A model generated the notes under the pieces. The model was not told the origin of the DNA and ran no database searches. It was given only the letters and a program-made list of their open reading frames with translations. Below, piece after piece: positions 6,367 to 33,871 of a stretch of 64,000 nt of DNA (positions are counted from its first letter, which is position 1; each line of letters opens with the position of its first letter). Position numbers and translations under genes: made by a program. This DNA comes from Candidatus Eiseniibacteriota bacterium (GTDB lineage Bacteria; ARS69): the NCBI GenBank assembly GCA_052390515.1, contig JBQTGV010000044.1, positions 15,619 through 79,618 of the forward strand. The letters run 5' to 3'.

Positions 6367-6395
6367 GTGGCACCGTCCCGGCAGTTCCGGCGCAC
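6367..6395 (+). promoter_or_regulatory. Candidate ECF-type promoter GTGGCAC-N17-CGCAC upstream of peptide gene 1
   Basis: This is copy 1 of 7 of the bipartite motif TGTCAC(C)-N17-CGCA(T), with an exact 17-nt spacer in every copy. It lies 63 nt upstream of the peptide ATG. Confidence 0.55.
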
Positions 6396-6458
6396 TGGGG
6401 GGCGGCCGTCTCCCGAGGAGACGGCGGCGGACATCAACCTTCCTTCGGAGGCAACGAC

Positions 6459-6542
6459 ATGATCACCCTCTTCGCGCTCGTCCTGGAACTCGTCGCTGGC
6501 AGGATCGCGGCCAACCACAATCAATCCGGGCTGGCCGGCTGA
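6459..6542 (+). CDS. Small conserved peptide (27 aa) MITLFALVLELVAGRIAANHNQSGLAG; peptide family member 1
   Basis: GGAGG lies 8 nt upstream of the ATG. It is one of six paralogs sharing the LFxLxL(D/E)hhAGRhAANHNQ core. It is divergent from the sigma gene. Confidence 0.6.
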   Translation: MITLFALVLELVAGRIAANHNQSGLAG

Positions 6543-6614
6543 TCCGTGCCTCCGGCGGGCACCCGGGTCTTGCGGTCGCGGGCCTCGATGGAAGCGGCCG
6601 CAACCCCGGGGGCG

Positions 6615-9497
6615 TCACCGCGTCGCCACCGGCCCGAGGTAGCGGTCCAGCCAGTCGAGGGTCTCGCGCACCACGTCGGGCCACGGCGGCACGTGGCCGC
6701 TGTCCAGGACCACGTGGCGCTTGTTCGCCGCCGGCGTTCCCAGCATGCGGAACAGCGGCTGCTGGTTGGTCTCGAACGGCGAGGCGAAATCGTAGCGGCC
6801 GTTGATCATCAGGACCGGGACGCGCACGCGCGGGGCGTAGTTGAACCCGTGCACCTCTTCCGGCGCCGACTCGTCCAGCCCTGCGGCGACGAGCACCAGG
6901 GTGCGCAGCCGGGGCTCCACCGCACCGACGATCGTTCCCTCTTCCGCGCCCATGCTGAGGCCATAGAACGCGATTCGCGTGCGGTCGATGTCGCTCCGAC
7001 TCTCGAGGTAGTCGATTCCGCGTCGCACGTCCAACGCGCGCTGCGTGACCACCTCGCGGAGGAAGCTGGGTCCAACGGCGTCCCGCTTGCGCCGGTGGTA
7101 GGTCTGCTGATAGGCGGGGAACAGGACCGCCCGCCCGCTCCGGACCAGGAATCCGAAATCGCGCTGACCCACTTGGTCGATCGATAAGAGCCACCGGGCA
7201 CTCCCTGGAGGAAAGTAGACGACGGTCTGGTAGGGGGGCGCCGCGTTCTTGGGCAGGAGCAGCCACGCCGGGATGCGCTCGTCGCCATAAGCCGCGGTGA
7301 AGCTGACCTTCTCGGCGCGCCAGAGCGGGGACCGGTCGTCCACCGAGTCCACCTGCGCGCCCAGCTCACCGCGGTCGTAGTCGAACATCCGCCGGTAGAT
7401 CTCGAAGATCCGATCGTCCACCGGTTGCAGACTCGAGAAGTCTCGCACCGGATCCTGGATCTCGCCGAAGCACTCATCGGAAGGGGGCTGCTCGTAAACG
7501 GCGCAGCGCAGGCCCAGGATCGGACCCCGGTCCATGGGATCGAGCGCGTCCGGCCCCGTATACAAGTACGTCGGATCGCTCCAGGCTCCGCCCAGCGTGT
7601 AGCGCCGGTCCCCGTCGGCGTTCCAGGCCCACTCGCGCACGTTGCCGGCCATGTCGTAGTTCCCGAACGCGGTGAGGCTGGGTTGGGCCTCGACGGGGCG
7701 CGGACCCTGGTCGCCGAAATTGCTGAAGCGTAGCAGGTCGGAGAAGATCGACAGGTCGGCCGCGCGGTACCAGTGATGGACGGTCGGCAGGCTCTTGCCG
7801 GCGAACTCGGCGTAGGCCGCCGCTTCGTACCAGCTCACACCGGACACCGGATGGTCTGCGTGCTCCGCGGGAAAGCTGCCCAGCTCCCAGGTCGAAGGCC
7901 CGGGCCGGCCGGTCCGGTCGCGGAACCGCGACATCGCCTCCTCGAAGGACAGAGACTCTCCGTGACTGGCGAAGGGGTGCTTCCACAGCTCGCGGCGTCG
8001 ATACCCGCCGGCGTTCACGAACGCCGCGAACTCTCGGTTGGTGACCTCGTGGCGGTCGAGCCAGTAGTCGCCGAGCACGACCGGTGGTGCCCCCCGGAAC
8101 TGGAAGGAACCTCCGGGAACGCGCACCATGTCGGCGGGTGCCGCGGCGACCGGGGTCAGGCGTACCGGAGCCTGCAGGGCCAGTCTCGACGGAGAGAAGG
8201 CCAACTCCACCGGTGCAAAGCCCGACTTCGCGAGATGGAAGCGCAACAGTGCGAACGGCAACTGCACGCCCTCGAGGGGCGTCATCCCCAGCTCTCTCCA
8301 CGCCGCGTCGGGCTCCGAGTACGGCTTGAAGGAGACCTGCGCACCGGCGGGCTCGCTGAGTAGGGTCAAAGGCGCGATCGTGATGTCGAGCCACGCCCTC
8401 TCGAAGACCGGATCGCCAGCCAGCAGGGGCTGTGCCTTCTCGGCCAGCCGGAATGCGCCGAGGCGGTCGTCCGCCTCGATCAGACGCTGGATCTCGGGCA
8501 GTGCCTCGCGCCTGGCCCAGCGTTCCTGCGCGCCCCGGTGCCACGTCCACACACCGAGCGCGGCGAGCGAGATCACCAGCAGCGCAAGGAGGGTGAGCCC
8601 CGCTGGACTGCGCAGACGTCTCGCCCACGCGGGCAGCCGGTCGGGCGTGGCGCAAGCCTCGAGGTCCGCGAGAAGCGCCACCGCCGAGGCGTAGCGCTCC
8701 GCCGGATCCTTCGCGAGACAGCGGGTCACGATCGCCTCGAGGCGTGGATCTATCTCGGGCCTCGCGCGCCGCAATGGTGTCGGCGCGGCGTTCAGGATCG
8801 CAGCCAGCAGAGCGACACCAGTGTCCCCCTCGAACGGCCGTCGGCCCGCGATCATCTCGTGGAGCGTCACTCCGAACGAAAAGACATCCGAGCGCGCGTC
8901 GACCGTGCGGCCGGTGGCTTGCTCGGGAGACATGTAGGCGGGGGTCCCGACGATCGTGTGCTCTGCGGTCGTGAGCGGGACGCTGATCGTGCTGGTCGTC
9001 GACTCCGTCCCGGGCTCGACGGACGGCGGGCGGCGGGCGAGTCCGAAGTCGAGCACCTTCACCACACCGCTGCGCGTGATCATCACGTTGGCGGGCTTGA
9101 GGTCGCGATGCACCACGCCGGCCGCGTGGGCCGCCGCCAGGCCGCGGGCCACGTCCACCGCGATCCGCAGCGCCTCGGCGAGGGGCAGCGGTCCGCGCGC
9201 GACGCGCTCGCGCAGACTCTCCCCGTCGAGACATTCCATCGCGATCCAGGTGCCGCGGCTGTCGTCTTCGCCAACGTCGTAGACCGTGACGATGTTGGGA
9301 TGGTTGAGCGACGAAAGGGTTCGCGCCTCCTGCACAAGACGCTGCGTACGCTGGGACTCGGCCACCGCGTCGGGGCGCAGCAGCTTGATGGCCACCGTCC
9401 GGCCCAGGCGCGGGTCGCGGGCACGGTAGAGCACGCCCATGCCGCCCTCACCGAGCTTGTCGGTGATCTCGAAACGACCGACGGTCTCTCCGAGCAT
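6615..9497 (-). CDS. Multidomain Ser/Thr kinase - TM - FGE-sulfatase (SUMF1-like) domain - alpha/beta-hydrolase (S9/DLH-like) domain
   Basis: N-terminal kinase motifs are present (GEGGMGVLY, HRDLKPAN, DFG, GTPAYMSPEQ), followed by a TM helix LLALLVISLAALGVW. The middle region is FGE-like (HEVTNREFAAFV...GGAWSDP). The C-terminal region is an alpha/beta hydrolase (GLSMGAEEG nucleophile elbow; ...DSGHVPP). Confidence 0.8.
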   Translation of the reverse strand: MLGETVGRFEITDKLGEGGMGVLYRARDPRLGRTVAIKLLRPDAVAESQRTQRLVQEARTLSSLNHPNIVTVYDVGEDDSRGTWIAMECLDGESLRERVARGPLPLAEALRIAVDVARGLAAAHAAGVVHRDLKPANVMITRSGVVKVLDFGLARRPPSVEPGTESTTSTISVPLTTAEHTIVGTPAYMSPEQATGRTVDARSDVFSFGVTLHEMIAGRRPFEGDTGVALLAAILNAAPTPLRRARPEIDPRLEAIVTRCLAKDPAERYASAVALLADLEACATPDRLPAWARRLRSPAGLTLLALLVISLAALGVWTWHRGAQERWARREALPEIQRLIEADDRLGAFRLAEKAQPLLAGDPVFERAWLDITIAPLTLLSEPAGAQVSFKPYSEPDAAWRELGMTPLEGVQLPFALLRFHLAKSGFAPVELAFSPSRLALQAPVRLTPVAAAPADMVRVPGGSFQFRGAPPVVLGDYWLDRHEVTNREFAAFVNAGGYRRRELWKHPFASHGESLSFEEAMSRFRDRTGRPGPSTWELGSFPAEHADHPVSGVSWYEAAAYAEFAGKSLPTVHHWYRAADLSIFSDLLRFSNFGDQGPRPVEAQPSLTAFGNYDMAGNVREWAWNADGDRRYTLGGAWSDPTYLYTGPDALDPMDRGPILGLRCAVYEQPPSDECFGEIQDPVRDFSSLQPVDDRIFEIYRRMFDYDRGELGAQVDSVDDRSPLWRAEKVSFTAAYGDERIPAWLLLPKNAAPPYQTVVYFPPGSARWLLSIDQVGQRDFGFLVRSGRAVLFPAYQQTYHRRKRDAVGPSFLREVVTQRALDVRRGIDYLESRSDIDRTRIAFYGLSMGAEEGTIVGAVEPRLRTLVLVAAGLDESAPEEVHGFNYAPRVRVPVLMINGRYDFASPFETNQQPLFRMLGTPAANKRHVVLDSGHVPPWPDVVRETLDWLDRYLGPVATR

Positions 9498-9686
9498 CGG
9501 CTGCCTCTCGGTGGTTGAGCCGTCACGCTACGGTGCTCATTCAATCCAGGTCAAGGCTGGGGCGACTCAGTCGCGCGCTCTCGCGAGCGGCGGTGGTGCT
9601 CGCGGCCTAAGCGTGGCGGCGGCCCGGTCGGGCTGGTGTACAATCCGCGCGGTCGCCGCCCCGGCGCCCGTGCCTCGGAGCCGCCC

Positions 9687-12551
9687 ATGGCCGACGAACA
9701 CTGGGATCGCGTCCGCGCGCTCTTCGAGCAGGTCCTGGAGCTGCGGGAGTCCGAGCGCACCGCGTTCCTGGACCGCGAGCTCGCCGGCGAGCCGGCGGTA
9801 CGCGCTGACCTCGTGTCTCTCCTCTCCGCGGGTCAGGCGAGCACCGAGTTCCTGGCCGGCGACTCCACCGGGGACCACGGATCGATCGGGCCGTATCGCC
9901 TCGTCAAGGTGATCGGCGAGGGCGGCTTCGGCGTGGTGTACCTCGCAGAGCAAGAGCGCCCGCTCCGCCGCCGCGTGGCGCTCAAGCTGATCAAGCGCGG
10001 GATGGACACGAAGCAGGTGATCGCGCGCTTCGAGGCGGAGCGGCAGGCGTTGGCGATGATGGACCACCCCGGAATCGCGCAAGTCTTCGACGCCGGCGAG
10101 ACCGAGATGGGGCGGCCCTACTTCGTCATGGAGTACGTGCCGGGCGTTCCCATCACGAGGTTCTGCGACGAGCAACGCCTCACCCTCCGAGACCGTCTGT
10201 CGCTGCTCGCGAACGTGTGCGACGCGGTGCAGCACGCGCACCAGAAGGGTGTGATCCACCGCGACATCAAACCGACGAACGTGGTGGTCGCGCGGCGCGA
10301 CGGAGTGGTCACACCCAAGGTGATCGACTTCGGCATCGCCAAGGCGACCACGGGCTTCCGCGGCGGGACCCTGATGACTCAGGAAGGGGCGATCGTCGGC
10401 ACGCTCGGGTACATGAGTCCGGAGCAGGCCGGCGCTCTGGACGCGCCGGTGGACACCCGTTCGGACATTTACTCGCTGGGGGTGATGCTCTACGAGCTGC
10501 TGATCGGGGCGCTGCCCTTCGACGACGGTCGCCTTCGTCAAGGCGCGCTGTCGGATGCGCTTCGCGTGATCCGGGAGGAGGATCCGCCGGCGCTGACCGT
10601 GCGGCTCGCACGCAGCGGCGGGGACGTGGCGAAGGTCGCGGAGCGGCGCTCCACGGACGCGCGCCGCCTGCTGCGGGACCTGAAGGGCGAGCTGCAGTGG
10701 ATCACGTTGCGCGCGCTGGAGAAGGATCCGGAGCGGCGCTATTCCTCGGCGGCGGAGTTCGCGGCGGACATTCGCCGGCATCTGACCGACGAGCCGGTGC
10801 TCGCCGGGGCGCCGACCGCCACCTACCGCATCCGGAAGTTCGTGCGTCGCCACCGCGGCGGGGTGGCCGCGGCGACACTGGTGCTCGCCGCGATCCTCGC
10901 CGGCGGCATCGCCTCGACCGTCAGCCTCACGCGCGCCGTCCGCGCCGAGCGCGAAACCCGACTCGAAGCGGAGTCTGCTCGACAGGTCGCAGACTTCCTG
11001 GTCGGCCTTTTCAGCGCGTCCACTCCAGACCGCGCGCGGGGCGCGGTCATCACCGCCCAGACGCTGCTCGAAGAGGGGACGCGGCGCATTCGAGACACGG
11101 TGACGGAGGATCCGCGGGTGCGTGCGCGGCTCTTGACGACGTTGGGGCACGCGAACGTGAACCTCGCTCAGTACGACCAGGGCATCGCTCTCCTGCGCGA
11201 GGCGCTGGCGGTGACCGACTCGAGCGCGTCGTCGGAACCGGTGGAGGTCGTCACTCAGCTCTACGCGCTGGCCACCGGCTTGCTGACATCCGGCCGGGGT
11301 GCCGACGACGAAACCGGCGCGACTCTGGACCGCGCGCTGGCGATCTTGCGTGATTCCGGCGCGGACCGGCCCGACCTGCTGTCGGCCTGTCTGCGCGGAA
11401 AGGGGTCGTGGTTCAACGAACGCGGCGAACTGGCGCCTGCCGAGTCGCTGCTCACGCTGGCCATCCGCACGGCGGAGTCGGTCTCCCCTCCGGATACCGC
11501 GAAGCTCGTCCGCATGTACAGCACGCGGGCGAACATCGCGCACCGGCAGTTCCACCTCGAGGACGCGGAGCGCCATTACTTGCACGCGCTCGAACTGGCG
11601 GAGAAGAGCGGGCAGCCGAGCTGGTCGATCAGCATGCACCGGCGGCTGGCCTCGGTCTACGGCGCGCTCGGCGATCCGGAGAAGGCGATTCGACACGCCG
11701 AAGAGGGAGTGCGGCTCGCACGGCAGATCTATTCGCCCGACCATCCCAACCTGGCTGACGCGCTGAGCGGCCTCGCGTCGGCACTCGCCTCGAAGGGTGA
11801 TGACTCGCAAGCGATCACCGTGAGCGAGGAGGTCGTCCGCATCACGCGCCAGAGCGGGAGATCGTTCGACCTCGCGCTGGAGCTGAACAGCCTGGGGCTT
11901 CTGTACCGCAGCAGCGACCAGCCGGAGCGGGCCGTGGCCTGCGCCGAGGAATCCTGGCGAATTCGCAACGAGACCCTCGGCGCGGGAAACGCGCGGACGG
12001 CGGAGTCGCTGGCCAACCTGGCGCGGAGCCTGTTCGCGGCGGGACAGACCGCGCGCGCGGACTCTTCGTTCCAGGCGGCCATCGCGGTGTTCGATCGGCT
12101 GGACGCGACGGGAGTGTTCACCGCGGTGGCCTACGCGAGCTTCGCGAACCTTTGTCGCGACACGAAGCGCCTCGCCCGCGCCGATACACTCTACGCTCAC
12201 GCCCAGGCCCTATTGGACTCCACGAATGCCGGGCTCCGACCCTACGCGGGCGAGTGCCTCATGGACCACGGGTACCTCCGCTCGCTGCAGGGTCGCCACG
12301 CGGAGGCGGAGGCCATGATCGCCGCCGGCTTCCCGTTGCGGCGAGGGGAGACGGCGGAGACGGATCCGGGGCTCGGACAGTGGTACCTGATCTGGGCCGC
12401 CTCGCGCGCAGCCGCCGGCGACGTGGACGGGGCCCTCGGAAAACTCCGGGAAGCGGCCCGCTGCGGTGTCACCTCGGAGGATGCGGAGACGCTCTCGGAG
12501 CTGGCCGCGCTCCGCTCCCGCGCCGACTATCCGCTGGAAGACTCCCGCTGA
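9687..12551 (+). CDS. Ser/Thr protein kinase with TM and TPR domain (module 2 paralog)
   Basis: It has the same architecture and the same N-terminal 'W.RV.ALF...ER.AFLDRE...LRA.L..LL' extension as the other paralogs. HRDIKPTN, DFG and GTLGYMSPEQ are present. Confidence 0.85.
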   Translation: MADEHWDRVRALFEQVLELRESERTAFLDRELAGEPAVRADLVSLLSAGQASTEFLAGDSTGDHGSIGPYRLVKVIGEGGFGVVYLAEQERPLRRRVALKLIKRGMDTKQVIARFEAERQALAMMDHPGIAQVFDAGETEMGRPYFVMEYVPGVPITRFCDEQRLTLRDRLSLLANVCDAVQHAHQKGVIHRDIKPTNVVVARRDGVVTPKVIDFGIAKATTGFRGGTLMTQEGAIVGTLGYMSPEQAGALDAPVDTRSDIYSLGVMLYELLIGALPFDDGRLRQGALSDALRVIREEDPPALTVRLARSGGDVAKVAERRSTDARRLLRDLKGELQWITLRALEKDPERRYSSAAEFAADIRRHLTDEPVLAGAPTATYRIRKFVRRHRGGVAAATLVLAAILAGGIASTVSLTRAVRAERETRLEAESARQVADFLVGLFSASTPDRARGAVITAQTLLEEGTRRIRDTVTEDPRVRARLLTTLGHANVNLAQYDQGIALLREALAVTDSSASSEPVEVVTQLYALATGLLTSGRGADDETGATLDRALAILRDSGADRPDLLSACLRGKGSWFNERGELAPAESLLTLAIRTAESVSPPDTAKLVRMYSTRANIAHRQFHLEDAERHYLHALELAEKSGQPSWSISMHRRLASVYGALGDPEKAIRHAEEGVRLARQIYSPDHPNLADALSGLASALASKGDDSQAITVSEEVVRITRQSGRSFDLALELNSLGLLYRSSDQPERAVACAEESWRIRNETLGAGNARTAESLANLARSLFAAGQTARADSSFQAAIAVFDRLDATGVFTAVAYASFANLCRDTKRLARADTLYAHAQALLDSTNAGLRPYAGECLMDHGYLRSLQGRHAEAEAMIAAGFPLRRGETAETDPGLGQWYLIWAASRAAAGDVDGALGKLREAARCGVTSEDAETLSELAALRSRADYPLEDSR

Positions 12552-13018
12552 CTCCTGGCCAGCCACCACTCGCGGAATTCGCGGAGCCGCGGCAGCGATT
12601 CTCGATCCTTGACTCGCCCCGTGGCCTCCTTGCTCCGGATGATGTCGTCGATGTGGCAGACCGGCAGCCCCTCCACCACCACCGACCGGGCGAGCGCGTC
12701 TGCGAAGGACTCGATTCCGTCCGGGGCGAACACCAAGTCCAGATCGAACGGTCCCTGGCGAAGCTGGACGAAGTCTTTGCCGCGCTCGATTTCGGCCCGC
12801 TCGCGCTCGTTCAGCTCGAAGCCCAGCGCACCGAGCGCGCGGACCGCTGCCGCTCCATTCGGCGGCGTCTTGTCGAGATAGAGGTCGGCGTCCTGGGTCG
12901 TGTCCGGGAATCCGAGTATGACGGCACCCGCCTTGCCGATGAACAGGTAGCGAACACCGAAGCGCCCGAACGCGGAAGCGATCTCCTGCGCCTGCCGGTA
13001 CTCAAACCGCGCGGCCAT
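12527..13018 (-). CDS. Hypothetical nucleotidyltransferase-like protein whose C-terminal ~20 aa resemble the ECF-sigma C-terminal tail (possible sigma gene remnant fusion)
   Basis: The C-terminal 'EFREWWLARSQRESSSG' can be compared with the sigma 'LRDWAFARAWLYGELSGG'. It occupies the same 25-nt convergent overlap with the kinase 3' end that the sigma genes occupy. Confidence 0.4.
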   Translation of the reverse strand: MAARFEYRQAQEIASAFGRFGVRYLFIGKAGAVILGFPDTTQDADLYLDKTPPNGAAAVRALGALGFELNERERAEIERGKDFVQLRQGPFDLDLVFAPDGIESFADALARSVVVEGLPVCHIDDIIRSKEATGRVKDRESLPRLREFREWWLARSQRESSSG

Positions 13019-13220: not shown

Positions 13221-13473
13221 GCGTTCAACATAGCATCCCGTTGCGGGGTGAGCCACGACCGCCGAGCTTCGGGCTGTGGCGTTGTGAGCCACCTCCGCGA
13301 CATCGAGCGACAGCTTGGGCTGCGCGACGGCCCGGAGCCCGTCGTAGACCTGGGCGATGAAGGCGTCGGAACTCCCCGGAGGGGTGCCGGAGGCGTGAAC
13401 AGGGGGCTCGCCGCGGGAATCGAGCCCGGATGGGAACGGGCCGCTGCCGTGGCTCGACGGGAGCTTCCGGCAA

Positions 13474-13501
13474 GGGGACGCATGTCACGTGGCGGCCCAC
13501 T
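13474..13501 (+). promoter_or_regulatory. Seventh copy of the TGTCAC-N17-CGCAC motif, immediately followed by a 13-nt remnant (CACAACCAGAACC) of a peptide-gene 3' end
   Basis: The spacing is exactly 17 nt. 'cacaaccagaacc' is identical to the NHNQN-coding segment of peptide gene 2. No intact peptide ORF follows. Confidence 0.4.
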
Positions 13502-13589
13502 CCGGCGCACAACCAGAACCGGGTCGGGGCAGCAGGTCATGGTGATCTCCTCAGACCCTCGAAGGGAGAAACGGACGATGGTCACCCTG

Positions 13590-14002
13590 CTGACGCTACC
13601 TGGAACACGTTCCCCACGGCAAACGGCGACGCGGCGGACGTGGTGCTGGGCTCCGGCAGCTTCGACACCGCCGGTTCGCCCACGCCTTCGGCGACCAGCA
13701 TCGCCTACCCGATGGGCGTCGCCTCCGACGGCACCAGCCTGTTCGTCTCGGACGCCGTCCTGAACCGCGTGCTGATCTTCGCGCCGTTCCCGACCACGAA
13801 CGGAGCAGCGGCCGCCATCGTGCTCGGGCAGAGCAGCTTCGCCAACTCCGCGGGCAACGATCCGAACCAGGACGGCGTCCGCGACGCCGGCCCGACTGCG
13901 CGGACCTTTCTCAGCCCCACCGACGTCAAGATCATCGACGATCGCCTCTTCGTGGCGGACATGGACAACAATCGCGTGCTGGTGTTCGCCCCGAGCCTCT
14001 GA
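13590..14002 (+). pseudogene. Truncated C-terminal fragment (~135 aa) of an NHL-repeat lipoprotein paralog
   Basis: It aligns with the C-terminal third of the 25262..26473 and 33995..35209 proteins (TWNTFPTANGDAADVVLG...NRVLIFAPFPTTNGAAA...NRVLVF). It has no N-terminal signal or lipobox and no in-frame plausible start. The upstream part of the ORF is non-homologous. Confidence 0.5.
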
Positions 14003-15265: not shown

Positions 15266-15835
15266 CTATCCGCCGGAAAGCTCACGGTAGAGCCAGGCCC
15301 GGGCGAAAGCCCAGTCCCGCAGCACGGTGCGGGGCGTGATTTCCAGCATCTCGGCCACCTCTTCGACGCTGAGCCCGGCGTAGAAGCGCAGCTTCACGAC
15401 CTTCGCCACCCGCTCCTCCCGGCCGGCCAGCCGATCGACCGCCTGGTCCAGAGCCAGGATGGTCTCGGGGTCGCGGTCGTCCGCCAGTGCGGCCACCTCG
15501 GCGATGTCCAGGGACAGCTTGGGCGCCGGCCGCCCTTCGGAATCCCCGCCGCGCTTCACCCGGCCGCGGGCCCGCGCCCGCTCGATGAGGATCCGGCGCA
15601 TGGCCTCGGCCGCCGCGGCGAAAAACTGGCTCCTGCTCAGCCAGGCGCTGTCGTCCCCAGGGCGAAGCCGGAGGTACGCCTCGTGCACCAGCTCCGTGGA
15701 CTGGAGGGACCGGCTGCTTTCTCCGCGCATCCGCGCGTGGGCGATCGCCCGGAGCTCGTCGTAGACCTGGGCGAAGAAGGCGTCGGACCCGCTTGGGGAG
15801 GGGACGGCAGGGCCGGCGGGGGGCTCGGTCGGCAT
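15266..15835 (-). CDS. ECF sigma factor, kinase-associated type (paralog 2)
   Basis: It has the same motifs as the other sigma paralogs (ELVHEAYLRL, DWAFARAWLYRELSGG). It is divergent from peptide gene 2 and kinase 3. Confidence 0.85.
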   Translation of the reverse strand: MPTEPPAGPAVPSPSGSDAFFAQVYDELRAIAHARMRGESSRSLQSTELVHEAYLRLRPGDDSAWLSRSQFFAAAAEAMRRILIERARARGRVKRGGDSEGRPAPKLSLDIAEVAALADDRDPETILALDQAVDRLAGREERVAKVVKLRFYAGLSVEEVAEMLEITPRTVLRDWAFARAWLYRELSGG

Positions 15836-26488: not shown

Positions 26489-29347
26489 ATGAACGGGGAA
26501 CAGTGGCGCCGGCTGAAGGACCTCTTCGTCGACCTCCAGGGAATGCCGGAGGGCGAGCGAAGCGCTCATCTCGACCGGGAGGCCGCCGGTGATCCGGAGG
26601 TGCGCGCCGAGCTCCATCGATTGCTCGCCGTCGACAGATTCGCCGCCGACTTCCTCGCCGCCGCACACTCCGCTTCCAGCCACGGCTCCATCGGACCCTA
26701 CCGGCTCCTCGAGATCCTGGGCGAAGGCGGCTTCGGCGTGGTGTATCTGGCCGAGCAGGAGCGCCCCATCCGCCGCCGCGTCGCGCTCAAGCTGATCAAG
26801 CCGGGGATGGACACGAAGCAGGTGATCGCCCGCTTCGAGGCCGAGCGGCAAGCCCTGGCTCTCATGGACCATCCCGGCATCGCCCAGGTTCACGACGCGG
26901 GCGAAACGGAGGCGGGCCGGCCGTACTTCGTCATGGAGTACGTGCCCGGGGAGCCCATCACCACGTTTTGCGACCGCGAGCGGCTGCGCATCCCCGAACG
27001 GCTCGAGCTCTTCCTCGAGGTCTGCGACGCGATCCAGCACGCCCACCACAAGAGCGTGATCCACCGGGACATCAAACCCTCCAACGTGCTCGTCGCGCTG
27101 CGCGACGGTGTGCCCGCGCCGAAGGTGATCGACTTCGGCATCGTCAAGGCGACCACGGCGGGGGCGGCCGGTCAAACCCTGATGACGCGCGAGGGGATGA
27201 TCGTCGGGACGCTGGGATACATGAGCCCGGAGCAGGCCGGGGCGGCCGAGACGGTGGACACGCGCTCCGACATCTACTCGCTGGGGGCTCTTCTGTACGA
27301 GCTGCTGGCGGGCTCACCGCCCTTCGACGCCGACCGGCTGAAGAGCGCCGCGCTCTCGGATGCCGTGCGCGTCGTCCGGGAAGAAGAGCCGCCGGCGCTC
27401 GCTGCGCGGGTGGCGCGAGGCGGGGAGGAGGAAGCGGCGGTGGTCGCCGAGCGGCGCTCCGCGGATGCCCGGCACCTTCTCCGCGAGCTGAAGGGCGAGC
27501 TGCAGTGGATCACGCTGCGCGCGCTGGAGAAGGACCCGAGCCGGCGTTACACGTCGGCGGCGGAGCTGGCGGCCGACATCCGCCGGCACCTCGCGAACGA
27601 GCCCGTGCTGGCCGTTGCTCCGAGCACGGCCTACCGGATGCGCAAGTTCGCCCGGAGGCACCGGGTCGGCGTCGTCGCTGCGACCGTCGTGCTGGCCACG
27701 ATCGTGGTCGGGGGAATCGCCGCGGGAATCGGCTTCGGCCGGGCGGTTCGTGCCGAGCACAAGGCACAACGCGAAGCGGAATCCCTACAGCGCGTCACCG
27801 ACTTTCTGGTCGAGTTGTTTCGCACGTCGAGCCCGGATCAATCCCGCGGAGAGACCATCACCGCGCGGACCCTCCTCGACGAGGGCACACGTCGCATCGA
27901 GGCCGACCTCGAGGCGGACGCGCACATCCGTGCGCGCCTGCTGGCGACGCTGGGCGACGCACATGTGAACCTGGCGCTCTACGATGACGGCCTTCGCCTG
28001 CTGCGCGAAGCGGTGGCGACGAGCGAAGCTGCGGAACCGCGCGACGACCTGGAGATCGCCGAGCAGCTTCGCCGATTGGCCTACGGCCTCAGAATGGCGG
28101 GACAGCTCGACAGCGTCGGGGTCCTCCTCGATCGCGCGATGGAGCTCGGACGCGACGCTGGGGCGCGCTCTCGCTGGATGGCGGGGTGCCTGTCGAACAA
28201 GGCTTCCTGGCTGAACAGCCTGGGCCAGCTCGCGCCGGCAGATTCGCTCGTGACGCTGGCGATCGAGATGGGTGAGTCCGAGCCGGAGCCGGATCGCCCT
28301 CAGCTCATGCGCATGTACTACACGAAGGGAAACATCGCCCACCGTCGGTTCGAGCTGCCGGATGCCGAGCGTCACTACCTCCGGGCGCTGGAGCTTTGCG
28401 AAAGCGGGGGAACCGAACCGACCTGGTCGGCGATGCTCCATCGCAGCCTGGCGTCCCTCTACGCCGCCCTCGGCGATCCGGAGAGGGCGGTGAGTCATGC
28501 GGAGCAGGGCGTGCGTCTCGCCCGGCGGCTCTATGCCTCCGACCATCCCAACCTCGCCTACGCGCTGGGCGGCCACGCGGCGGCCCTGGCCGGCAAAGGA
28601 GATTACTCGGGGGCGCTCGCTGTGCGGGAGGAGGCGCTGGGCATTTGGCGTGCGACCGGGGCGCAGACCGACCTCGCCCGCGAGCTGAACAGCGTAGGAA
28701 TCCTGCACCGGGCTGCCGGTCAACTCGATCTCGCTATCGCCTGCACGGAAGAAGCGTGCGCGCTGTACCGCGCGTCATTCGGTCAGGAAAGCGGCCGAAC
28801 CGCGGAGGCGGTCGCCAACCTGGCGCGGCTGTATGCGGAGAAGGGGCAGCTCCATCGCGCCGACTCGACGTACCGCGCAGCCGTTCCCGTGTTCGATCGG
28901 CTGCGCGACGGAAGCATCTTCGCCACCTATGCCTCCATGGGCTTCGCCAACGTGTGTCGGGATCTCGGGCGCTCGGCTCAGGCCGAGAGCCTCTATTCGC
29001 GGGTGGAGTCCGCGCTGGACTCCACCGAGGCGGGCCTGCGGGGCTATTTCGGCGAGTGCCTGGTGGATCACGCTTACCTGCGGTCGCGGCAGGGGAGGCA
29101 CGACGAGGCGGAGTCCATGATGCGGATCGGGCTCCCCATGCAACGCGGCGACGCCGCCGAGGATGCTCGAAGTCTGGGTGCCGCGTACCTCACGTGGGCA
29201 GCGGCGCGCGCGCTGGCCGGGGACGCCGCCGGCGCCATCGAGAAGCTCCAGCAGGCCGCCCGCTGCGGCGTGACGGTGCAGGACGCCGCCCGATATCCCG
29301 AGCTCGCCGCGCTCCCGGCCGACTACCCCCTGGAGAGCTCTCCGTAG
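26489..29347 (+). CDS. Ser/Thr protein kinase with TM and TPR domain (paralog 4)
   Basis: It has the conserved N-terminal extension, the kinase motifs, a TM helix and TPR repeats. It starts 16 nt after the NHL gene stop. Confidence 0.85.
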   Translation: MNGEQWRRLKDLFVDLQGMPEGERSAHLDREAAGDPEVRAELHRLLAVDRFAADFLAAAHSASSHGSIGPYRLLEILGEGGFGVVYLAEQERPIRRRVALKLIKPGMDTKQVIARFEAERQALALMDHPGIAQVHDAGETEAGRPYFVMEYVPGEPITTFCDRERLRIPERLELFLEVCDAIQHAHHKSVIHRDIKPSNVLVALRDGVPAPKVIDFGIVKATTAGAAGQTLMTREGMIVGTLGYMSPEQAGAAETVDTRSDIYSLGALLYELLAGSPPFDADRLKSAALSDAVRVVREEEPPALAARVARGGEEEAAVVAERRSADARHLLRELKGELQWITLRALEKDPSRRYTSAAELAADIRRHLANEPVLAVAPSTAYRMRKFARRHRVGVVAATVVLATIVVGGIAAGIGFGRAVRAEHKAQREAESLQRVTDFLVELFRTSSPDQSRGETITARTLLDEGTRRIEADLEADAHIRARLLATLGDAHVNLALYDDGLRLLREAVATSEAAEPRDDLEIAEQLRRLAYGLRMAGQLDSVGVLLDRAMELGRDAGARSRWMAGCLSNKASWLNSLGQLAPADSLVTLAIEMGESEPEPDRPQLMRMYYTKGNIAHRRFELPDAERHYLRALELCESGGTEPTWSAMLHRSLASLYAALGDPERAVSHAEQGVRLARRLYASDHPNLAYALGGHAAALAGKGDYSGALAVREEALGIWRATGAQTDLARELNSVGILHRAAGQLDLAIACTEEACALYRASFGQESGRTAEAVANLARLYAEKGQLHRADSTYRAAVPVFDRLRDGSIFATYASMGFANVCRDLGRSAQAESLYSRVESALDSTEAGLRGYFGECLVDHAYLRSRQGRHDEAESMMRIGLPMQRGDAAEDARSLGAAYLTWAAARALAGDAAGAIEKLQQAARCGVTVQDAARYPELAALPADYPLESSP

Positions 29348-29895
29348 AGCCAGGTCCTGGCGAAGGCCCAATCCCGGAGCACGGTACGCTTCGACGCTTC
29401 CAGCGTCTCCGCCACCTCCTCGACGCTCAGGCCCGCGTAGAAGCGCAGCCGAACGATCTGCGCCGCCCGCTCGTCCTGCACCGCCAGCCGCTCGATGGCA
29501 CGGTCCAGGGCGAGGATCGTCTCCGGGTCCCTGTCGTCGGCGATCGCGGCGACCTCCTCGAGGTCGAGCGACACCTTGGGCGCCGGTCGGCCCTCGGAAT
29601 CGCCGCCGCGCTTGACTCGCCGCCGGGCGCGGGCCCGGTCGATGAGGATCCGCCGCATGGCCTCGGCCGCCGCGGCGAAGAACTCCGCGCGGCCCTGCCA
29701 ATCGCCTGCCCCCTCGGGGCGAAGGCGCAGGTAGGCCTCGTGCACGAGCTCGGTGGTCTGGAGGCTCTGGCCCGCGTTCTCGCCCCGCATCCGCGCGTGC
29801 GCGATCGTGCGGAGCTCGTCGTAGACGCGGGCGAAGAACGCGTCGGAACCGGCCGGGCCGGGCTCGTCGGGTTGGGCAGGGGGCTCGGTGGACAT
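29323..29895 (-). CDS. ECF sigma factor, kinase-associated type (paralog 4)
   Basis: It has the same motifs as the other sigma paralogs. It has a 25-nt convergent overlap with kinase 4 and is divergent from kinase 5. Confidence 0.85.
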   Translation of the reverse strand: MSTEPPAQPDEPGPAGSDAFFARVYDELRTIAHARMRGENAGQSLQTTELVHEAYLRLRPEGAGDWQGRAEFFAAAAEAMRRILIDRARARRRVKRGGDSEGRPAPKVSLDLEEVAAIADDRDPETILALDRAIERLAVQDERAAQIVRLRFYAGLSVEEVAETLEASKRTVLRDWAFARTWLYGELSRG

Positions 29896-30079
29896 GCAGG
29901 GCGATGGTAAGGGGACGCCGTCCCGAGCTCAACCCGCCGGTTCCCAACCCACGGTGGCCGCCCCCGGCCGTCCACCGCTTCGCTGCCGCCGGACTCCGGC
30001 CTGGACGTACTTCGCCCGGCTCCGGACGGCCACGTCGGTCCGCCAAGCCCATCCGGCTGCGGTCGGCTAAACTGCGCCG

Positions 30080-32944
30080 ATGAACCGGGAGCAGTGGAGC
30101 CGACTCCGGGACCTCTACGCCGAGGCCGACGAGATGCCGGAGGGCGAGCGTCGCGCCTTCCTGGACCGTGAGGCGCGGGACGACCCCGAGCTCCGCGCCG
30201 AGCTGGACCGGCTCTTCGCCGCCGGCGCGGCCGCGACGACCTTCTTCGCACCATCCCCATCCGACGCCGGGCAGGGCTCGATCGGGCCGTACCGTCTCCT
30301 CCGCATCCTCGGCGAGGGCGGCTTCGGTGTCGTGTACCTCGCCGAGCAGGAGCGGCCCATCCGGCGCCGCGTGGCGCTCAAGCTGATCAAGCCGGGCATG
30401 GACACGAGGCAGGTGATCGCCCGCTTCCAGGCGGAGCGTCAGGCGCTCGCGGTGATGGACCACCCCGGCATCGCGCAGGTGCACGACGCCGGCGAGACGG
30501 AGACGGGCCGTCCCTACTTCGTCATGGAGTACGTGCCCGGCGCTCCGGTCACGGCGTTCTGCGACCGCGAGCGGCTGAGCGTACGCCAGCGGCTGGAGCT
30601 CTTCCTGCACATTTGTGACGCCATTCAGCACGCGCACCAGAAGGGAGTCATCCACCGGGACATCAAGCCGTCCAACGTGCTCGTCGCACTGCGGGACGGC
30701 GTGGCGGCACCGAAGGTGATCGACTTCGGCATCGTCAAGGCGACGACGGAGTTCGCAGCGGCGGGCACCCTGATGACCCGCGAGGGCATGATCGTCGGGA
30801 CGCTGGGGTACATGAGCCCGGAGCAGGCCGGGTCGTCGGAGAGCGTGGACACGCGCTCGGACATCTACTCGCTGGGGGTGCTGCTCTACGAGCTGCTGAC
30901 CGGCGCGCTGCCATTCGACGCGGAGCGGCTGCGCCAGGCGGCGCTGTCGGACGCCGTGCGGGTCATCCGCGAGGAGGAGCCGCCCGCCCTGGCCGCGAGA
31001 CTGTCCCGGAGTCGCGAGGCGTCCGCTGCCGCGGCCGAGCGGCGCTCGACCGACGTGCGCCGGCTCCTGCGCGACCTGAAGGGCGAGCTCTCCTGGATTA
31101 CGCTGCGCGCGACCGAGAAGGACCCGAACCGGCGCTACGCGTCGGCCGCGGAGCTGGCGGCGGACGTCCGGCGGCACCTCGACAACGAGCCCGTGCTCGC
31201 CGGCGCGCCGAGCACCATGTACAGACTGCGCAAGTACGCGCGGCGGCACCGCGCCGGCGTGATCGCCGCGGTGGTCGTGCTGGCCTCCATCGTGGCCGGC
31301 GGCGTCGCCGCGGGAATCGGTTTCCGCCGAGCGGTGCTGGCCGAGCAGGACGCGCGCCGCGAGGCGGAGTCGTCGAAGCGCGTCTCCGATTTCCTGGTGG
31401 AGCTGTTCCGCGCATCCAGCCCGGACGTGTCACAAGGCGAAGTGCTCACCGCGCGCATGCTCCTGGACGAGGGCACGCGCCGGATCGAGAGCGCGCTCGA
31501 GGAGGACCCGCTGGTGCGCGCTCGGGTCCTCGACGCGATGGGGGCGTCGTACGTGAACCTGGGCCACTTCGAGGAGGGGATCCGCGTCCGGCGCGAGGCG
31601 GTGACCGCCGCCGAGTCGGTCGAGCCGCGGGACGACGTGGAGGTCTCCAAACGGCTCGTCGGTCTCGCTCTGGCGCTGACCATGGGCGGCCAGCGCAACG
31701 ACGCGCGCCCGCTTCTCGAGCGGGCGAACGCGCTCTGCCAGGCCTCGGCGGACGCCGAACCGGATGTGCGCGCGGCGTGCCTCCAGCAGTTGGGACAGTG
31801 GTGGAACGAAGAGGGCGAGACCACCAAGGCAGACTCCCTGCTCACGCAGGCGCTCGAGATCGCGGAGTCCGCGGCCGAACCGAACGCCGTGCGGCTCATG
31901 CGCATCTGTTCGAGCAAGGCGAACATCGCTCACCGCCGGCTCGACCTGCAGGAGGCGGAGCGGCACTACCGGAGGGTGCTGGCCCTCGCGCGGGAGACGG
32001 AGACCCCTTCCGCCGCCATCAGCGCCCATCGCGGTCTGGCGTCGATGTTCGCAACGCTCGACGAGCCGGACAGCGCGCTGGCGCACGCCGAGGAGGGCGT
32101 CCGCCTCGCGCGGCAGATCTACGCGCCCGACAATCCCCAGCTCGCGACTGCGCTCGGCGGTCAGGCGAACGCGCTCACCGCCCGCGGTCGGTACCCCGAG
32201 GCGATCGCCGTCCTGGAAGAGGCGCTGGCCATCCTGCGGACTAAGGGGGCGCCGGAGCTTGCGGCCGGCGCGGCAAACCTGGCCGGCTCCGTCTACTTGG
32301 CGGACGGCCAGGTCGACTCCGCGATCGCCCGCACCGAAGAAGCCCATCGGATCTTCGTCGGGCAGAAGGGTCCGGAGAACGCCCGCGTGGCGGAGGTCGT
32401 GGCCAACCTGGGGCGCTGCTACGCCGCAGCGGGGCAGACCCAGCGGGCCGACGCGTCCTTCCGCGATGCCATCGCCGTGTTCGACCGAGTCGGGGACGAG
32501 ACCATCCTCCCGCCGCTGGCATGGATGAGCTACGCGAACCTCTGCCGCGACGACGGGCGGATGGAGCGGGCGGATTCGTTGTACGCGCGCGCGGCTGCCG
32601 CCCTGGACTCGACGAACGCCGGGATGCGGTCGTACGCCTGGGAGTGCCTGATGGACTGGGGCCGCCTGCGGTCTCTTCAAGACAGGCACGACGAGGCGGA
32701 GGCGCTGCTGCGGGGGAGCTACTCCATCAGGCGGAGCAGCGCGGAGGGCGACACCGATCCCTCCCTGGGCGGTGTGTACCTCGTGTGGGCGGCGGCCCGA
32801 TCGCGCGCCGGGGATGTCGAAGGCGCCGTCGAGAAGCTCCGCCTGGCCGCGGCGAGTGAGGTGGACCCGAGGGACGTCGAGGGCTTCCCGGAGCTCGCCG
32901 CCCTCCGGGACCATCCGGAGTACCCGTTCCGAGGAACTCGCTGA
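30080..32944 (+). CDS. Ser/Thr protein kinase with TM and TPR domain (paralog 5)
   Basis: It has the conserved N-terminal extension, the kinase motifs, a TM helix and TPR repeats. Confidence 0.85.
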   Translation: MNREQWSRLRDLYAEADEMPEGERRAFLDREARDDPELRAELDRLFAAGAAATTFFAPSPSDAGQGSIGPYRLLRILGEGGFGVVYLAEQERPIRRRVALKLIKPGMDTRQVIARFQAERQALAVMDHPGIAQVHDAGETETGRPYFVMEYVPGAPVTAFCDRERLSVRQRLELFLHICDAIQHAHQKGVIHRDIKPSNVLVALRDGVAAPKVIDFGIVKATTEFAAAGTLMTREGMIVGTLGYMSPEQAGSSESVDTRSDIYSLGVLLYELLTGALPFDAERLRQAALSDAVRVIREEEPPALAARLSRSREASAAAAERRSTDVRRLLRDLKGELSWITLRATEKDPNRRYASAAELAADVRRHLDNEPVLAGAPSTMYRLRKYARRHRAGVIAAVVVLASIVAGGVAAGIGFRRAVLAEQDARREAESSKRVSDFLVELFRASSPDVSQGEVLTARMLLDEGTRRIESALEEDPLVRARVLDAMGASYVNLGHFEEGIRVRREAVTAAESVEPRDDVEVSKRLVGLALALTMGGQRNDARPLLERANALCQASADAEPDVRAACLQQLGQWWNEEGETTKADSLLTQALEIAESAAEPNAVRLMRICSSKANIAHRRLDLQEAERHYRRVLALARETETPSAAISAHRGLASMFATLDEPDSALAHAEEGVRLARQIYAPDNPQLATALGGQANALTARGRYPEAIAVLEEALAILRTKGAPELAAGAANLAGSVYLADGQVDSAIARTEEAHRIFVGQKGPENARVAEVVANLGRCYAAAGQTQRADASFRDAIAVFDRVGDETILPPLAWMSYANLCRDDGRMERADSLYARAAAALDSTNAGMRSYAWECLMDWGRLRSLQDRHDEAEALLRGSYSIRRSSAEGDTDPSLGGVYLVWAAARSRAGDVEGAVEKLRLAAASEVDPRDVEGFPELAALRDHPEYPFRGTR

Positions 32945-32955: not shown

Positions 32956-33537
32956 CTAGGCGCCGTCCCCGGAGAGCTCTCCGTAGAGCCACGCCCGGGC
33001 GAAGGCCCAGTCGCGGAGGACGGTCCGGGTCGACGCGCCCATCGCCTCGGCCACCTCCTCGACGGAGAGCCCTCCGTAGAAGCGCAGCCGCACCACCTTC
33101 GCCGCGCGCTCGTCCTTCTCCGCCAGGCGCTCGATGGCGCGGTCGACGGCCAGGATGGTCTCCGGATCGCCGTCGTCGGCGAGCGCGGCCACCTCTTCCA
33201 GGTTGAGCGAGACCCTCGGCGGGGGCCGGCCTTCCGCGTCGCCGCCGCGCTTCATCCGCCCCTTCGCGCGGGCCCGCTCGATCAGGATCCGGCGCATGGC
33301 CTCGGCGGCGGCGGAGAAGAAGTGGCCGCGGTTGTCCCAGCGGCCGCCGCCCGGCGGGCGAAGGCGCAGGTAGGCCTCGTGCACCAGCTCGGTGGATTGG
33401 AGGGTCTGCCCGGTGCGTTCGCCCTGCATCCGGGCGTGCGCGATGGCCCGGAGCTCGTCGTAGACCTGGGCGAAGAACGTGTCCGAGCCCTTCGGGCCGG
33501 GTCCGGGGGGGTCGGGGGCGGGCCGTTCCTCGGTCAT
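32956..33537 (-). CDS. ECF sigma factor, kinase-associated type (paralog 5)
   Basis: The sequence MTEERPAPD...ELVHEAYLRL...DWAFARAWLYGELSGDGA is present. It is convergent with kinase 5 without overlap. Confidence 0.8.
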   Translation of the reverse strand: MTEERPAPDPPGPGPKGSDTFFAQVYDELRAIAHARMQGERTGQTLQSTELVHEAYLRLRPPGGGRWDNRGHFFSAAAEAMRRILIERARAKGRMKRGGDAEGRPPPRVSLNLEEVAALADDGDPETILAVDRAIERLAEKDERAAKVVRLRFYGGLSVEEVAEAMGASTRTVLRDWAFARAWLYGELSGDGA

Positions 33538-33625
33538 GGAGCCGATGCTAACGGGCCTCCCGGAGTGTCTCAACCGGCTTCTCGAAAGCCGCCGTCCTCC
33601 GCGTCCGCCCTGCCCTTCCGGCCCG

Positions 33626-33653
33626 CTGTCACCCTCCGCCCGCCTCCGTCGCA
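33626..33653 (+). promoter_or_regulatory. TGTCAC-N17-CGCAT candidate ECF-type promoter (copy 5)
   Basis: The conserved motif lies 60 nt upstream of peptide 5. Confidence 0.55.
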
Positions 33654-33713
33654 TGCAGCCGCGACCGTCACCGTGCAGGCGGCGGACGAACCAATCACCC
33701 GGAGGGGAAGGCC

Positions 33714-33797
33714 ATGATCACCCTGTTCACGCTGGTTCTGGACCTGGTTCTGGGCAGGATCGCTGCCAACCATAACCAGACCGTTCGGTCCGCGTAG
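33714..33797 (+). CDS. Small conserved peptide (27 aa) MITLFTLVLDLVLGRIAANHNQTVRSA; family member 5
   Basis: GGAGGGGAAGG lies upstream. It is a paralog of the other peptides. Confidence 0.6.
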   Translation: MITLFTLVLDLVLGRIAANHNQTVRSA

Positions 33798-33843
33798 CTC
33801 GGGAGTTTCCGCGGCGGGCGAGGGACCTTCGCCCGCCGCCCCG

Positions 33844-33871
33844 TGTCACCTCCGGGGTGACTTCGGCGCAG
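33844..33871 (+). promoter_or_regulatory. TGTCAC-N17-CGCAG candidate ECF-type promoter (copy 6)
   Basis: The conserved motif lies 31 nt upstream of peptide 6. Confidence 0.55.

Follow-up and report, generated by a model that had tools for sequence, protein, structure and literature searches.

A candidate ECF-type promoter beside kinase-linked sigma factors and small peptide genes in a Candidatus Eiseniibacteriota bacterium

Introduction

Sigma factors of the extracytoplasmic function (ECF) type that are activated by Hanks-type kinases have been characterized in group ECF43, i.e. in the pairs EcfP/PknT of V. parahaemolyticus (PMC8999054) and EcfK/PknS of X. citri (PMC13147305). Phosphorylation of the threonine in the motifs STTA of EcfP (PMC8999054) and QATE of EcfK (PMC13147305) restores an acidic patch that binds the beta' subunit of RNA polymerase. 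In the papers that we consulted on ECF43 and other kinase-linked ECF groups, we found no statement of a target promoter. Here we analyze a stretch of 64,000 nucleotides (the window) from an uncultured Candidatus Eiseniibacteriota bacterium (GenBank assembly GCA_052390515.1, contig JBQTGV010000044.1, positions 15,619 to 79,618), which contains seven copies of a two-block element, in its exact form TGTCAC-N17-CGCA, among genes for five ECF sigma factors, Hanks-type Ser/Thr kinases and very small peptides. Judging from the DNA and its relatives, we give a probability of roughly 0.8 to the reading that this element is an ECF-type promoter read by the neighboring sigma factors, which belong to family TIGR02999 and are ECF43-like. 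The element is ordinary in kind; the regulon that it would define is previously undescribed.

The similarity to ECF43 concerns the gene pair and, less clearly, region 2.2 of the sigma factor. A minimal sigma2-sigma4 ECF factor is encoded beside a transmembrane Hanks kinase, and no anti-sigma Pfam domain was detected among the neighbor genes examined. In region 2.2, an alignment by eye places Q(S/T)TE at the DAED patch; its threonine would then occupy the phosphorylated position of QATE and STTA as a putative phospho-site, and a glutamate is retained. We call these factors ECF43-like by sequence and gene context. In contrast to the described pairs, the sigma and kinase genes are convergent with a conserved 3' overlap of 25 nt, the kinase sensor is a large TPR array, five paralogous modules lie within 35 kb, and the predicted outputs are micropeptides and beta-propellers that are either lipoproteins or exported by the type IX secretion system (T9SS), rather than genes of type VI secretion or polymyxin resistance.

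With respect to the DNA element itself, the closest relative is the ECF41 target promoter TGTCACA-n16-CGTC (Wecke et al. 2012; PMC3426412), which a preliminary description of this DNA, made by a model from the letters, had correctly named as similar in its -35 block. Both share the -35 TGTCAC and the same register, with 17 nt between TGTCAC and the 4-nt -10 block, and in both cases the promoter drives genes directly beside the sigma gene and no large regulon. However, the -10 block is CGCA here (extended TyCGG-CGCA) and CGTC in ECF41; the sigma factors of the window belong to TIGR02999/PF07638, lack the C-terminal SnoaL-like extension and have Ser/Thr kinases as partners; and peptide, propeller and NHL genes stand in place of COE targets (carboxymuconolactone decarboxylase, oxidoreductase, epimerase). 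Lacking the extension and COE genes and having another -10, the window factors were rejected as members of ECF41.

Canonical group IV promoters have the form GGAAC-N16/17-CGT(C/A), as for sigmaE and sigmaW (Lane & Darst 2006; PMC1540707). In sigmaE, residue S172 contacts position -34, and the identity of this residue correlates with that base across group IV sigma factors (PMC1540707). The element of the window is likewise bipartite, with a -35 ending in xAC, a -10 starting with CG and a spacer of about 17 nt, and the upstream half of its -35 appears to be specified by the residue equivalent to S172. It differs in that the -35 is TGTCAC, not GGAAC, the equivalents of sigmaE R171 and R176 are Leu and Phe, and the sigma genes are not autoregulated from the promoter. 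Published ECF motif prediction relies on autoregulation (PMC7826278). Such a prediction would miss a divergent promoter of the present kind, because the sigma genes are not autoregulated here.

Feedback of small peptides on sensors is familiar from MgrB, which acts on PhoQ, and from the RRNPP family, whose TPR receptors bind secreted peptides. The functional analogy to the present locus is a very small hydrophobic peptide, encoded as an output beside a sensor with a TPR-array domain. Here, however, a Hanks kinase takes the place of the histidine kinase or RRNPP regulator, and the peptide family has no detectable relatives outside its clade.

Results

Copies of the element in the window

The cluster spans approximately 2.8 to 35 kb of the window, whose base composition is 70% G+C; the gene map was based on the G+C content of third codon positions (GC3) and was followed by Pfam and NCBIfam searches. 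All seven copies are present on the plus strand. The scores and ranks in the following list refer to a weight matrix built from foreign sites, which is described further below.

6368 to 6394, plus strand: copy 1, TGGCAC-N17-CGCA, divergent to sigma gene 5737-6309 and 58 bp from the sigma start; score 15.0, window rank 6
13483 to 13509, plus strand: exact TGTCAC-N17-CGCA, in a decayed cassette
15892 to 15918, plus strand: TGTCAT-N17-CGCA, divergent from sigma gene 15266-15835; score 18.6, rank 2
19760 to 19786, plus strand: variant class, TGTCAC-N17-CGCG, divergent from sigma gene 19127-19699
22532 to 22558, plus strand: variant class, TGTCAC-N17-AGCG, without an adjacent sigma gene; score 16.2, rank 4
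33627 to 33653, plus strand: exact copy, divergent from sigma gene 32956-33537; score 19.6, rank 1
33844 to 33870, plus strand: exact copy; score 17.2, rank 3

The preliminary description had reported seven copies of TGTCAC(C)-N17-CGCA(T). All seven exist, with small corrections of position: 6367 becomes 6368, 33626 becomes 33627, and 13474 becomes 13483, a shift of 9 nt. The spacer is 17 nt in every copy, and no variant with an 18-nt spacer occurs in the window. The exact sequence is found in three copies only (13483, 33627 and 33844; chance expectation 0.19); the remaining four deviate with TGGCAC (6368), TGTCAT (15892), CGCG (19760) and AGCG (22532). The (T)TCGG that had been noticed before the -10 is indeed frequent: T(C/T)CGG directly precedes the second block in five of the seven copies.

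Conservation across genomes

Querying 185,579 species genomes with the sigma alignment yielded 80 loci. In 12 of these, the sigma genes are 67-79% identical to those of the window; the corresponding metagenome-assembled genomes (MAGs) are labelled Gemmatimonadota, Krumholzibacteriota or 'bacterium'. For the other 68 loci, the best-segment identity of the sigma factor is 37-53%, mostly 43-51%. The exact motif occurs 11 times in 126 kb around the close homologues (at least 67% identical) and is absent from the 768 kb around the distant ones (40-50% identical). Loci in other genomes are denoted below by their numbers (L001 etc.).

We also built an independent weight matrix from eight foreign sites alone. 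By its scores, the top six of about 128,000 window positions are six of the seven copies; four of them score at least 16.2, whereas Markov shuffles give 0.2 at that score. The copy at 19760 scores lower in this matrix owing to its TCTTC-CGCG, and the orthologous cassette in L089 shows the same CGCG. A combined matrix revealed further strong sites in 9 of the 12 close loci. Together with extra sites from loci obtained via sigma-protein look-ups, the final set comprises 33 sites on 15 contigs, i.e. the window and 14 foreign ones. The motif is kept beside close sigma homologues in at least 12 other genomes or metagenomes.

The spacer measures 17 nt in all 33 sites. Information content amounts to 1.0-2.3 bits per position in the hexamer and 1.1-2.2 in CGCA, compared with about 0.1 in the upstream flanks. 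As had been described for the window, the spacer sequence is not conserved (mostly 0.1-0.6 bits per position), apart from a T and cGg immediately ahead of the second block. After CGCA follows a conserved purine-rich tG.aGGGG, where conservation ends. The refined consensus reads TGTCAC-N12-TyCGG-CGCA-tG.aGGGG.

Every site is oriented with a downstream gene, whose start codon follows CGCA after a variable 32-64 nt in the window and after as much as about 95 nt elsewhere. These genes are not homologous to one another: peptide genes, kinase genes (L004, L005, L008) and genes for proteins with signal peptides (L001, L002, L006, L008, L009) are all preceded by the element. In four close loci, a profile hidden Markov model (HMM) of the peptide matches genes of 24-38 aa, each located after xxxCAC-N17-(C/A)GCA.

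Sigma factors and their covariation with the element

Five genes in the window encode sigma factors of this family:

5737 to 6309, minus strand: ECF sigma factor, TIGR02999/PF07638, with QSTE in sigma2.2 and the sigma4.2 helix RTVMRDWAFARTWLY
15266 to 15835, minus strand: ECF sigma factor with 100% identity to an NCBI protein from a Candidatus Eiseniibacteriota MAG; it scores 175.7 bits with TIGR02999 (cut-off 126.15)
19127 to 19699, minus strand: ECF sigma factor of a variant class, with FFYAAAQAMRR in sigma2 and RTVLRIWAF in sigma4.2
29323 to 29895, minus strand: ECF sigma factor without a TGTCAC-type promoter in its upstream region
32956 to 33537, minus strand: ECF sigma factor

These paralogues are 70-77% identical to each other, match PF07638 with E-values of 1e-45 to 2e-49, and consist of 189-193 aa, ending right after region 4.2 and containing no extra Pfam domain. 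Among solved sigma structures, sequence searches of the PDB gave no significant match. All five paralogues carry Q(S/T)TELVHEAY in region 2.2, as do 137 of 138 relatives from databases (at least 65% identity). When this patch is aligned by eye to DAED, the threonine is invariant and the glutamate is retained, as in QATE of EcfK.

The DNA-reading sigma4.2 core, LRDWAFAR, is identical in four of the window sigma factors, which also have CGCA-type promoters in common. Sigma 19127 alone is distinct, with an exchange of E to Q in sigma2 and of D to I in sigma4.2, and it goes with the CGCG and AGCG promoters at 19760 and 22532. From their sequences, this factor and the two promoters appear to constitute a second specificity class.

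In the wider set, the core LRDWAFAR is nearly invariant, yet Y replaces R173 in three species (L007, L083 and L091). All seven promoters at these loci have GTGCAC, TTGCAC or GTTCAC (pattern xTxCAC) instead of TGTCAC; consequently, T at position 2 of the hexamer is found in 7/7 sites with an R173Y sigma factor and in 0/26 others. An R-type sigma factor of the same subclade (L089) retains TGTCAC. The linked base changes are confined to the upstream half of the hexamer, while the CAC half, which corresponds to the AAC core, is unchanged. R173 matches S172 of E. coli sigmaE when the two sequences are aligned without gaps, with TV...AR as the anchor. A second covariation concerns the -10. The sigma2 helix FFAAAA(E/V)AMRR is changed to Q in window sigma 19127 and in L007, L083, L089 and L091, and a -10 other than CGCA (AGCA, CGCG or AGCG) is present in 8 of 10 sites beside Q-type sigma factors, compared with none of the 23 others. 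Both covariations are what a cognate pair of sigma factor and promoter would predict.

Several points weigh against the reading of the element as the promoter of these sigma factors. The two associations yield Fisher p-values of 2e-7 and 3e-6, which overstate independence, because both covariations probably stem from one or two evolutionary events. Sites were assigned to sigma factors by proximity, and in the case of 22532 by tandem duplication of the 19760 cassette. The mapping of R173 onto sigmaE is an ungapped manual alignment, in which the residues equivalent to R171 and R176 are not conserved. No promoter copy lies near sigma gene 29323-29895, and three kinase genes of the window lack one as well. 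The distribution of sites was assessed within the 64-kb window, in which none lie outside the cluster.

What the preliminary description had proposed, namely a target promoter of the paralogous ECF sigma factors, is supported by the sequence analysis: architecture, association with the sigma clade and covariation speak for it, but the element is divergent from the sigma genes and not autoregulatory. The sigma genes have promoter-like sequences of their own:

15844 to 15872, minus strand: sigma70-like promoter TTGAGC-N17-TACCAT, 8 nt before the sigma ATG
6316 to 6344, 19707 to 19735, 29904 to 29932 and 33545 to 33573, all minus strand: the same sigma70-like element of the other sigma genes

In all five cases, TTGAG(C/A)-N17-TA(C/G)(C/G)AT ends 6-8 nt before the ATG, and a generic promoter scan finds two of these elements independently. 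Out of 16 foreign sigma genes, seven (L007, L010, L083, L084, L085, L089 and L091) fit the strict pattern. The sigma70-like -35 stands back to back with the TGTCAC block, at a distance of 18-45 bp. Since the motif is divergent from the sigma genes and these have their own sigma70-like promoter, they are not autoregulated via the motif. The position of this promoter suggests that sigma expression is constitutive, and the sigma mRNAs are probably leaderless.

Alternative readings of the element

The element could be a genuine promoter that is read by some other alternative sigma factor encoded elsewhere, e.g. an ECF41-like one, with the TIGR02999 genes merely co-located. The ECF41-specific TGTCAC(A) recurs in its -35, with the register unchanged, and the local sigma genes, unusually for ECF sigma factors, have no copy of the motif on their own strand (PMC7826278). 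Nevertheless, the -35 and -10 variants track substitutions in the sigma4.2 and sigma2 helices of the local factors, the motif accompanies this sigma clade from genome to genome but is missing beside the distant homologues, and the -10 is CGCA, not CGTC as in ECF41. From the DNA of the window and the compared loci, we consider this explanation unlikely.

We find it very unlikely that the two blocks form an operator of a transcription factor or another DNA-binding protein. A fixed distance between two conserved blocks is typical of dimeric regulators too, and an inverted repeat, GTCACC-N(2-5)-GGTGAC, spans the -35 hexamer at 33844-33866 and in the copy near 9502 on the minus strand of L004. However, this repeat is missing from the 31 other sites, i.e. 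it occurs in only 2/33, and the two blocks show neither palindromic symmetry nor direct repetition of one another. Their sequences and 17-nt spacing match the -35/-10 geometry of ECF promoters, the covariation with sigma residues points in the same direction, and no conserved regulator gene lies beside the sites except the sigma and kinase genes.

Could the similarity be a mere by-product of recent cassette duplication, or the trace of a structured 5' leader RNA, with no promoter function at all? The cassettes are clearly paralogous, given the 70-77% identity of their sigma factors and intergenic regions that align, and GC-rich hairpins follow several copies. Yet the blocks are preserved, whereas their flanks and the spacer have drifted to background level, and in other genomes the blocks precede non-homologous genes. 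RNAalifold over the 33 sites predicts no consensus RNA structure (energy 0.0), Rfam has no match to the motif regions, and the leader hairpins vary in sequence, length and presence. This explanation is highly improbable.

A further reading takes the opposite strand, TGCG-N17-GTGACA with an embedded CCGGAAC, for a promoter through which the sigma genes autoregulate, and we give it next to no credence. In its favor, autoregulation is the usual case for ECF sigma factors (PMC7826278), and the reverse complement of several copies holds GGAAC, the classical ECF -35 core. However, GGAAC is found only in some copies, and beyond 22532, 33844 and many foreign sites there is no sigma gene in the opposite direction. 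In the window, TTGAGN-N17-TAnnAT is already present 6-8 nt ahead of the ATG of each sigma gene; the element would be too distant from that start and would sit on the wrong side of the sigma70-like promoter.

A sigma54 promoter (TGGCAC-N5-TTGC, with GG at -24 and GC at -12, 10 nt apart) was also considered and rejected. Among the window copies, only 6368 has TGGCAC, and it continues with CGTCC-CGGC, not TTGC. In the set of 33 sites, the GG dinucleotide (TGGCAx) is limited to window 6368 and L012 -9462.

Peptide genes downstream of the element

The preliminary description had placed the motif upstream of every peptide gene. This holds for five intact genes and for a sixth, degenerate one at 33903 that it had not listed:

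6459 to 6542, plus strand: peptide gene MITLFALVLELVAGRIAANHNQSGLAG, 27 aa, with the Shine-Dalgarno sequence GGAGG; peptide HMM E = 4e-15
15951 to 16034, plus strand: peptide gene MLTLFVLVLELVAGRLVGNHNQNLIRA; kinase gene 16176-19151 is next on the same strand
19845 to 19925, plus strand: peptide gene MMLFVLLVDFVAGKIAINHNATRIGG, 26 aa, with the stop codon 3 nt ahead of a propeller gene
22613 to 22696, plus strand: peptide gene MIALFALVLDIIAGRLAANHNQTAVSG
33714 to 33797, plus strand: peptide gene MITLFTLVLDLVLGRIAANHNQTVRSA, followed by a strong GC hairpin
33903 to 33995, plus strand: degenerate peptide open reading frame (ORF) MPTLFALLLDLVAGRRAANHGQTRLFEERA after the 33844 site; HMM E = 1e-11

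The intact genes have 26-27 codons and GGAGG ribosome-binding sites, and each begins 32-64 nt after a motif site. The stop codon of the degenerate ORF overlaps the start (ATGA) of an NHL lipoprotein gene that ends at 35209. Length is well conserved, with 27 codons in 14/14 full-length copies compared, even though variants of 26, 24 and 38 aa exist. With a dN/dS of about 0.38, the gene evolves as a coding sequence. The family layout is a hydrophobic N-terminal half with one Asp or Glu, followed by (G/Q)(R/K)-x3-NHN-x-x-R-L-x-G, and the conserved part is the C-terminal tail from (R/K) onwards, (R/K)-x3-NHN-x-x-R-L-x-G.

Besides the window, family members are present in L001, L004, L005, L007, L083, L085 and L089. 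The L001 homologue has 38 aa and a classical cleavable signal peptide ahead of the conserved tail; L085 contains three tandem peptide genes behind one promoter. Of all predicted targets of the promoter, none is as constant as the peptide gene. Peptide genes are absent from the annotated gene tables of the relatives' contigs; genes of 84 nt, stop codon included, are shorter than common gene callers report. No peptide relatives were found around the distant sigma homologues and none are detectable outside this clade. A DNA-pattern scan of metagenomes returned only two chance matches of low G+C content and was uninformative.

Of two further ideas on the peptide, one was rejected and one is unsupported. 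An N-x-S/T sequon in the tail, present as NQT, NAT or NQS in most of the first dozen copies, is not general: the 15951 gene has NQN, and the L085 genes have NQN or NPN. Mimicry of the transmembrane helix of the kinase (LVAGRIAA resembling IVAGGIAA) finds no support, as the peptide HMM misses the kinase transmembrane segments even at E = 10.

A decayed cassette around 13483

The copy near 13474 had been taken for a remnant, and what surrounds its corrected position confirms this. Its second block, CGCAC, is fused at 13508 to 13 nt identical to 16008-16020, the 3' part of the 15951 peptide gene; the 5' untranslated region and most of the peptide gene are deleted. Two gene fragments flank it:

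13269 to 13409, minus strand: sigma pseudogene fragment, tblastn match to sigma residues 4-56 with 43% identity, E = 4e-8
13601 to 13987, plus strand: truncated NHL-repeat gene fragment downstream of the remnant promoter, 68% identical to residues 272-400 of the NHL protein 25262-26473

The place of the sigma gene is occupied by ORF 12527-13018 on the minus strand. As a candidate for a sixth sigma factor it was rejected, being unrelated and without a family match; what it keeps is the 25-nt 3' tail (12527-12551) that overlaps kinase gene 9636-12551.

Kinases, secreted proteins and neighboring genes

The remaining genes of the cluster discussed here encode mostly kinases and predicted secreted proteins:

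16176 to 19151, plus strand: Hanks-type Ser/Thr kinase with one transmembrane helix and a TPR region, convergent with sigma gene 19127, the 3' ends overlapping by 25 nt
2777 to 5761, 9636 to 12551, 26489 to 29347 and 30080 to 32944, all plus strand: paralogues of this kinase
19929 to 22430, plus strand: secreted DUF5122 beta-propeller with FlgD-Ig and a T9SS C-terminal sorting domain, by Pfam; TIGR04183 Por_Secre_tail 38 bits against a cut-off of 23
22709 to 25216, plus strand: second DUF5122 propeller, with FlgD-Ig (T9SS sorting domain)

All five kinases have approximately 950-990 aa and consist of an N-terminal kinase domain, one transmembrane segment near residues 390-454, and a TPR array of about 500 aa that is predicted to lie outside the cytoplasm. 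They share the N-terminal motif M(x)D(D/E)RWxRLxxLF...LDRE...LRAEL..LL before the kinase domain and ...(I/V)(A/V)GG(I/V)A(A/S)... in the transmembrane segment; translation probably begins at M(x)D(D/E)RW, so that the longest ORFs would be up to about 110 nt too long at the 5' end.

Kinase-TPR genes are convergent with four of the five window sigma genes, and relatives show the same pairing. The 3' overlap of sigma and kinase genes is exactly 25 nt at 5737-5761, 19127-19151 and 29323-29347, and the same length is kept at 12527-12551. It recurs in L083 (1783-1807), L084 (2070-2094), L089 (5549-5573) and L091 (1008-1032) as well as in the gene tables of P0059, P0018 and P0024. Within the overlap, one strand encodes the end of the sigma factor, ...WLYGELSxG*, and the other the end of the kinase, ...DYPL(D/E)SxP*. 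Such an arrangement could couple the two genes by antisense or transcriptional interference. In L005, the sigma and kinase genes are co-directional, with a promoter copy between them.

The propeller gene 19929-22430 is likely a co-transcribed target of the 19760 promoter. The second propeller gene is followed on the same strand by the NHL gene 25262-26473 and then by kinase gene 26489-29347; in total, the cluster contains two NHL lipoprotein genes. A sixth kinase gene within the cluster (6615-9497, minus strand), convergent with the stand-alone 6459 peptide gene, differs in architecture and encodes a kinase domain, a transmembrane helix, an FGE-sulfatase-like domain and a hydrolase-like C-terminus. 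The cluster is bordered by a gene for a FeoB ferrous-iron transporter (35295-37505, minus strand), which is also found beside the orthologous propeller/sigma cassette in L089 (25-2235). This adjacency may represent conserved synteny or a hint about signal or function.

Discussion

If the element is an ECF-type promoter, TGTCAC would be its -35 and (TyCGG)CGCA its -10, and transcription would probably start a few nucleotides downstream of CGCA, within the purine-rich tG.aGGGG. The reader would be RNA polymerase carrying the neighboring TIGR02999, ECF43-like sigma factor. We presume that the sigma genes are expressed constitutively from their own sigma70-like promoter as leaderless mRNAs, as their upstream sequences indicate, and that the product stays inactive until the partner kinase phosphorylates the threonine of Q(S/T)TE in region 2.2, in analogy with EcfP/PknT and EcfK/PknS. 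In these factors, Q(S/T)TE would replace the acidic DAED patch that contacts the beta' subunit of RNA polymerase. Gating by the kinase is plausible because this threonine is located at the ECF43 phospho-site. The partner would be the membrane-spanning Hanks kinase, which presumably senses its signal outside the cytoplasm with its predicted extracytoplasmic TPR domain.

The active sigma factor would then switch on a small regulon, i.e. the genes of the 27-aa hydrophobic peptide, of the T9SS beta-propellers and of the NHL lipoproteins, and in several genomes the kinase gene itself. A chain from sigma factor to peptide to secreted propeller, as formulated in the preliminary description, accordingly covers part of the predicted targets; the relatives add kinase genes and other secreted proteins. 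The same description regarded the regulon as replicated five to six times. The cassettes are indeed paralogous, but the sigma paralogues do not have private promoter types: as four of them share an identical sigma4.2 core and CGCA promoters, several kinase inputs would converge on common outputs rather than form five insulated circuits, and only sigma 19127 stands apart.

What is more speculative is the role of the peptide. One might imagine that it is a signalling output that inserts in or crosses the membrane and acts back on the TPR domain or transmembrane helix of the partner kinase, in an autoinducing or autoinhibitory loop. We regard this idea, drawn from analogy, as unlikely; it would liken the system, in an uncultured phylum of the FCB group, to RRNPP quorum sensing or to the MgrB-PhoQ feedback. 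No more than hints in its direction are the constancy of the peptide gene as a target, its fixed length and conserved C-terminal tail, the signal peptide of the L001 homologue, the three tandem copies in L085 and the predicted extracytoplasmic position of the TPR domain.

Kinase-activated ECF43-like sigma factors are numerous, and few of them have known target promoters, in part owing to the reliance of motif prediction on autoregulation; the present analysis offers a candidate promoter and regulon for one Eisenbacteria-like clade. The cluster also shows how several paralogous kinase/sigma inputs may be wired onto shared outputs. The natural specificity pairs, R173Y with TGTCAC to GTGCAC and the E-to-Q exchange in sigma2 with CGCA to AGCA or CGCG, could be reused as orthogonal ECF switches. 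The most unusual aspect of the system is a conserved, unannotated family of 27-aa peptides, which the promoter exposes as its probable main output.

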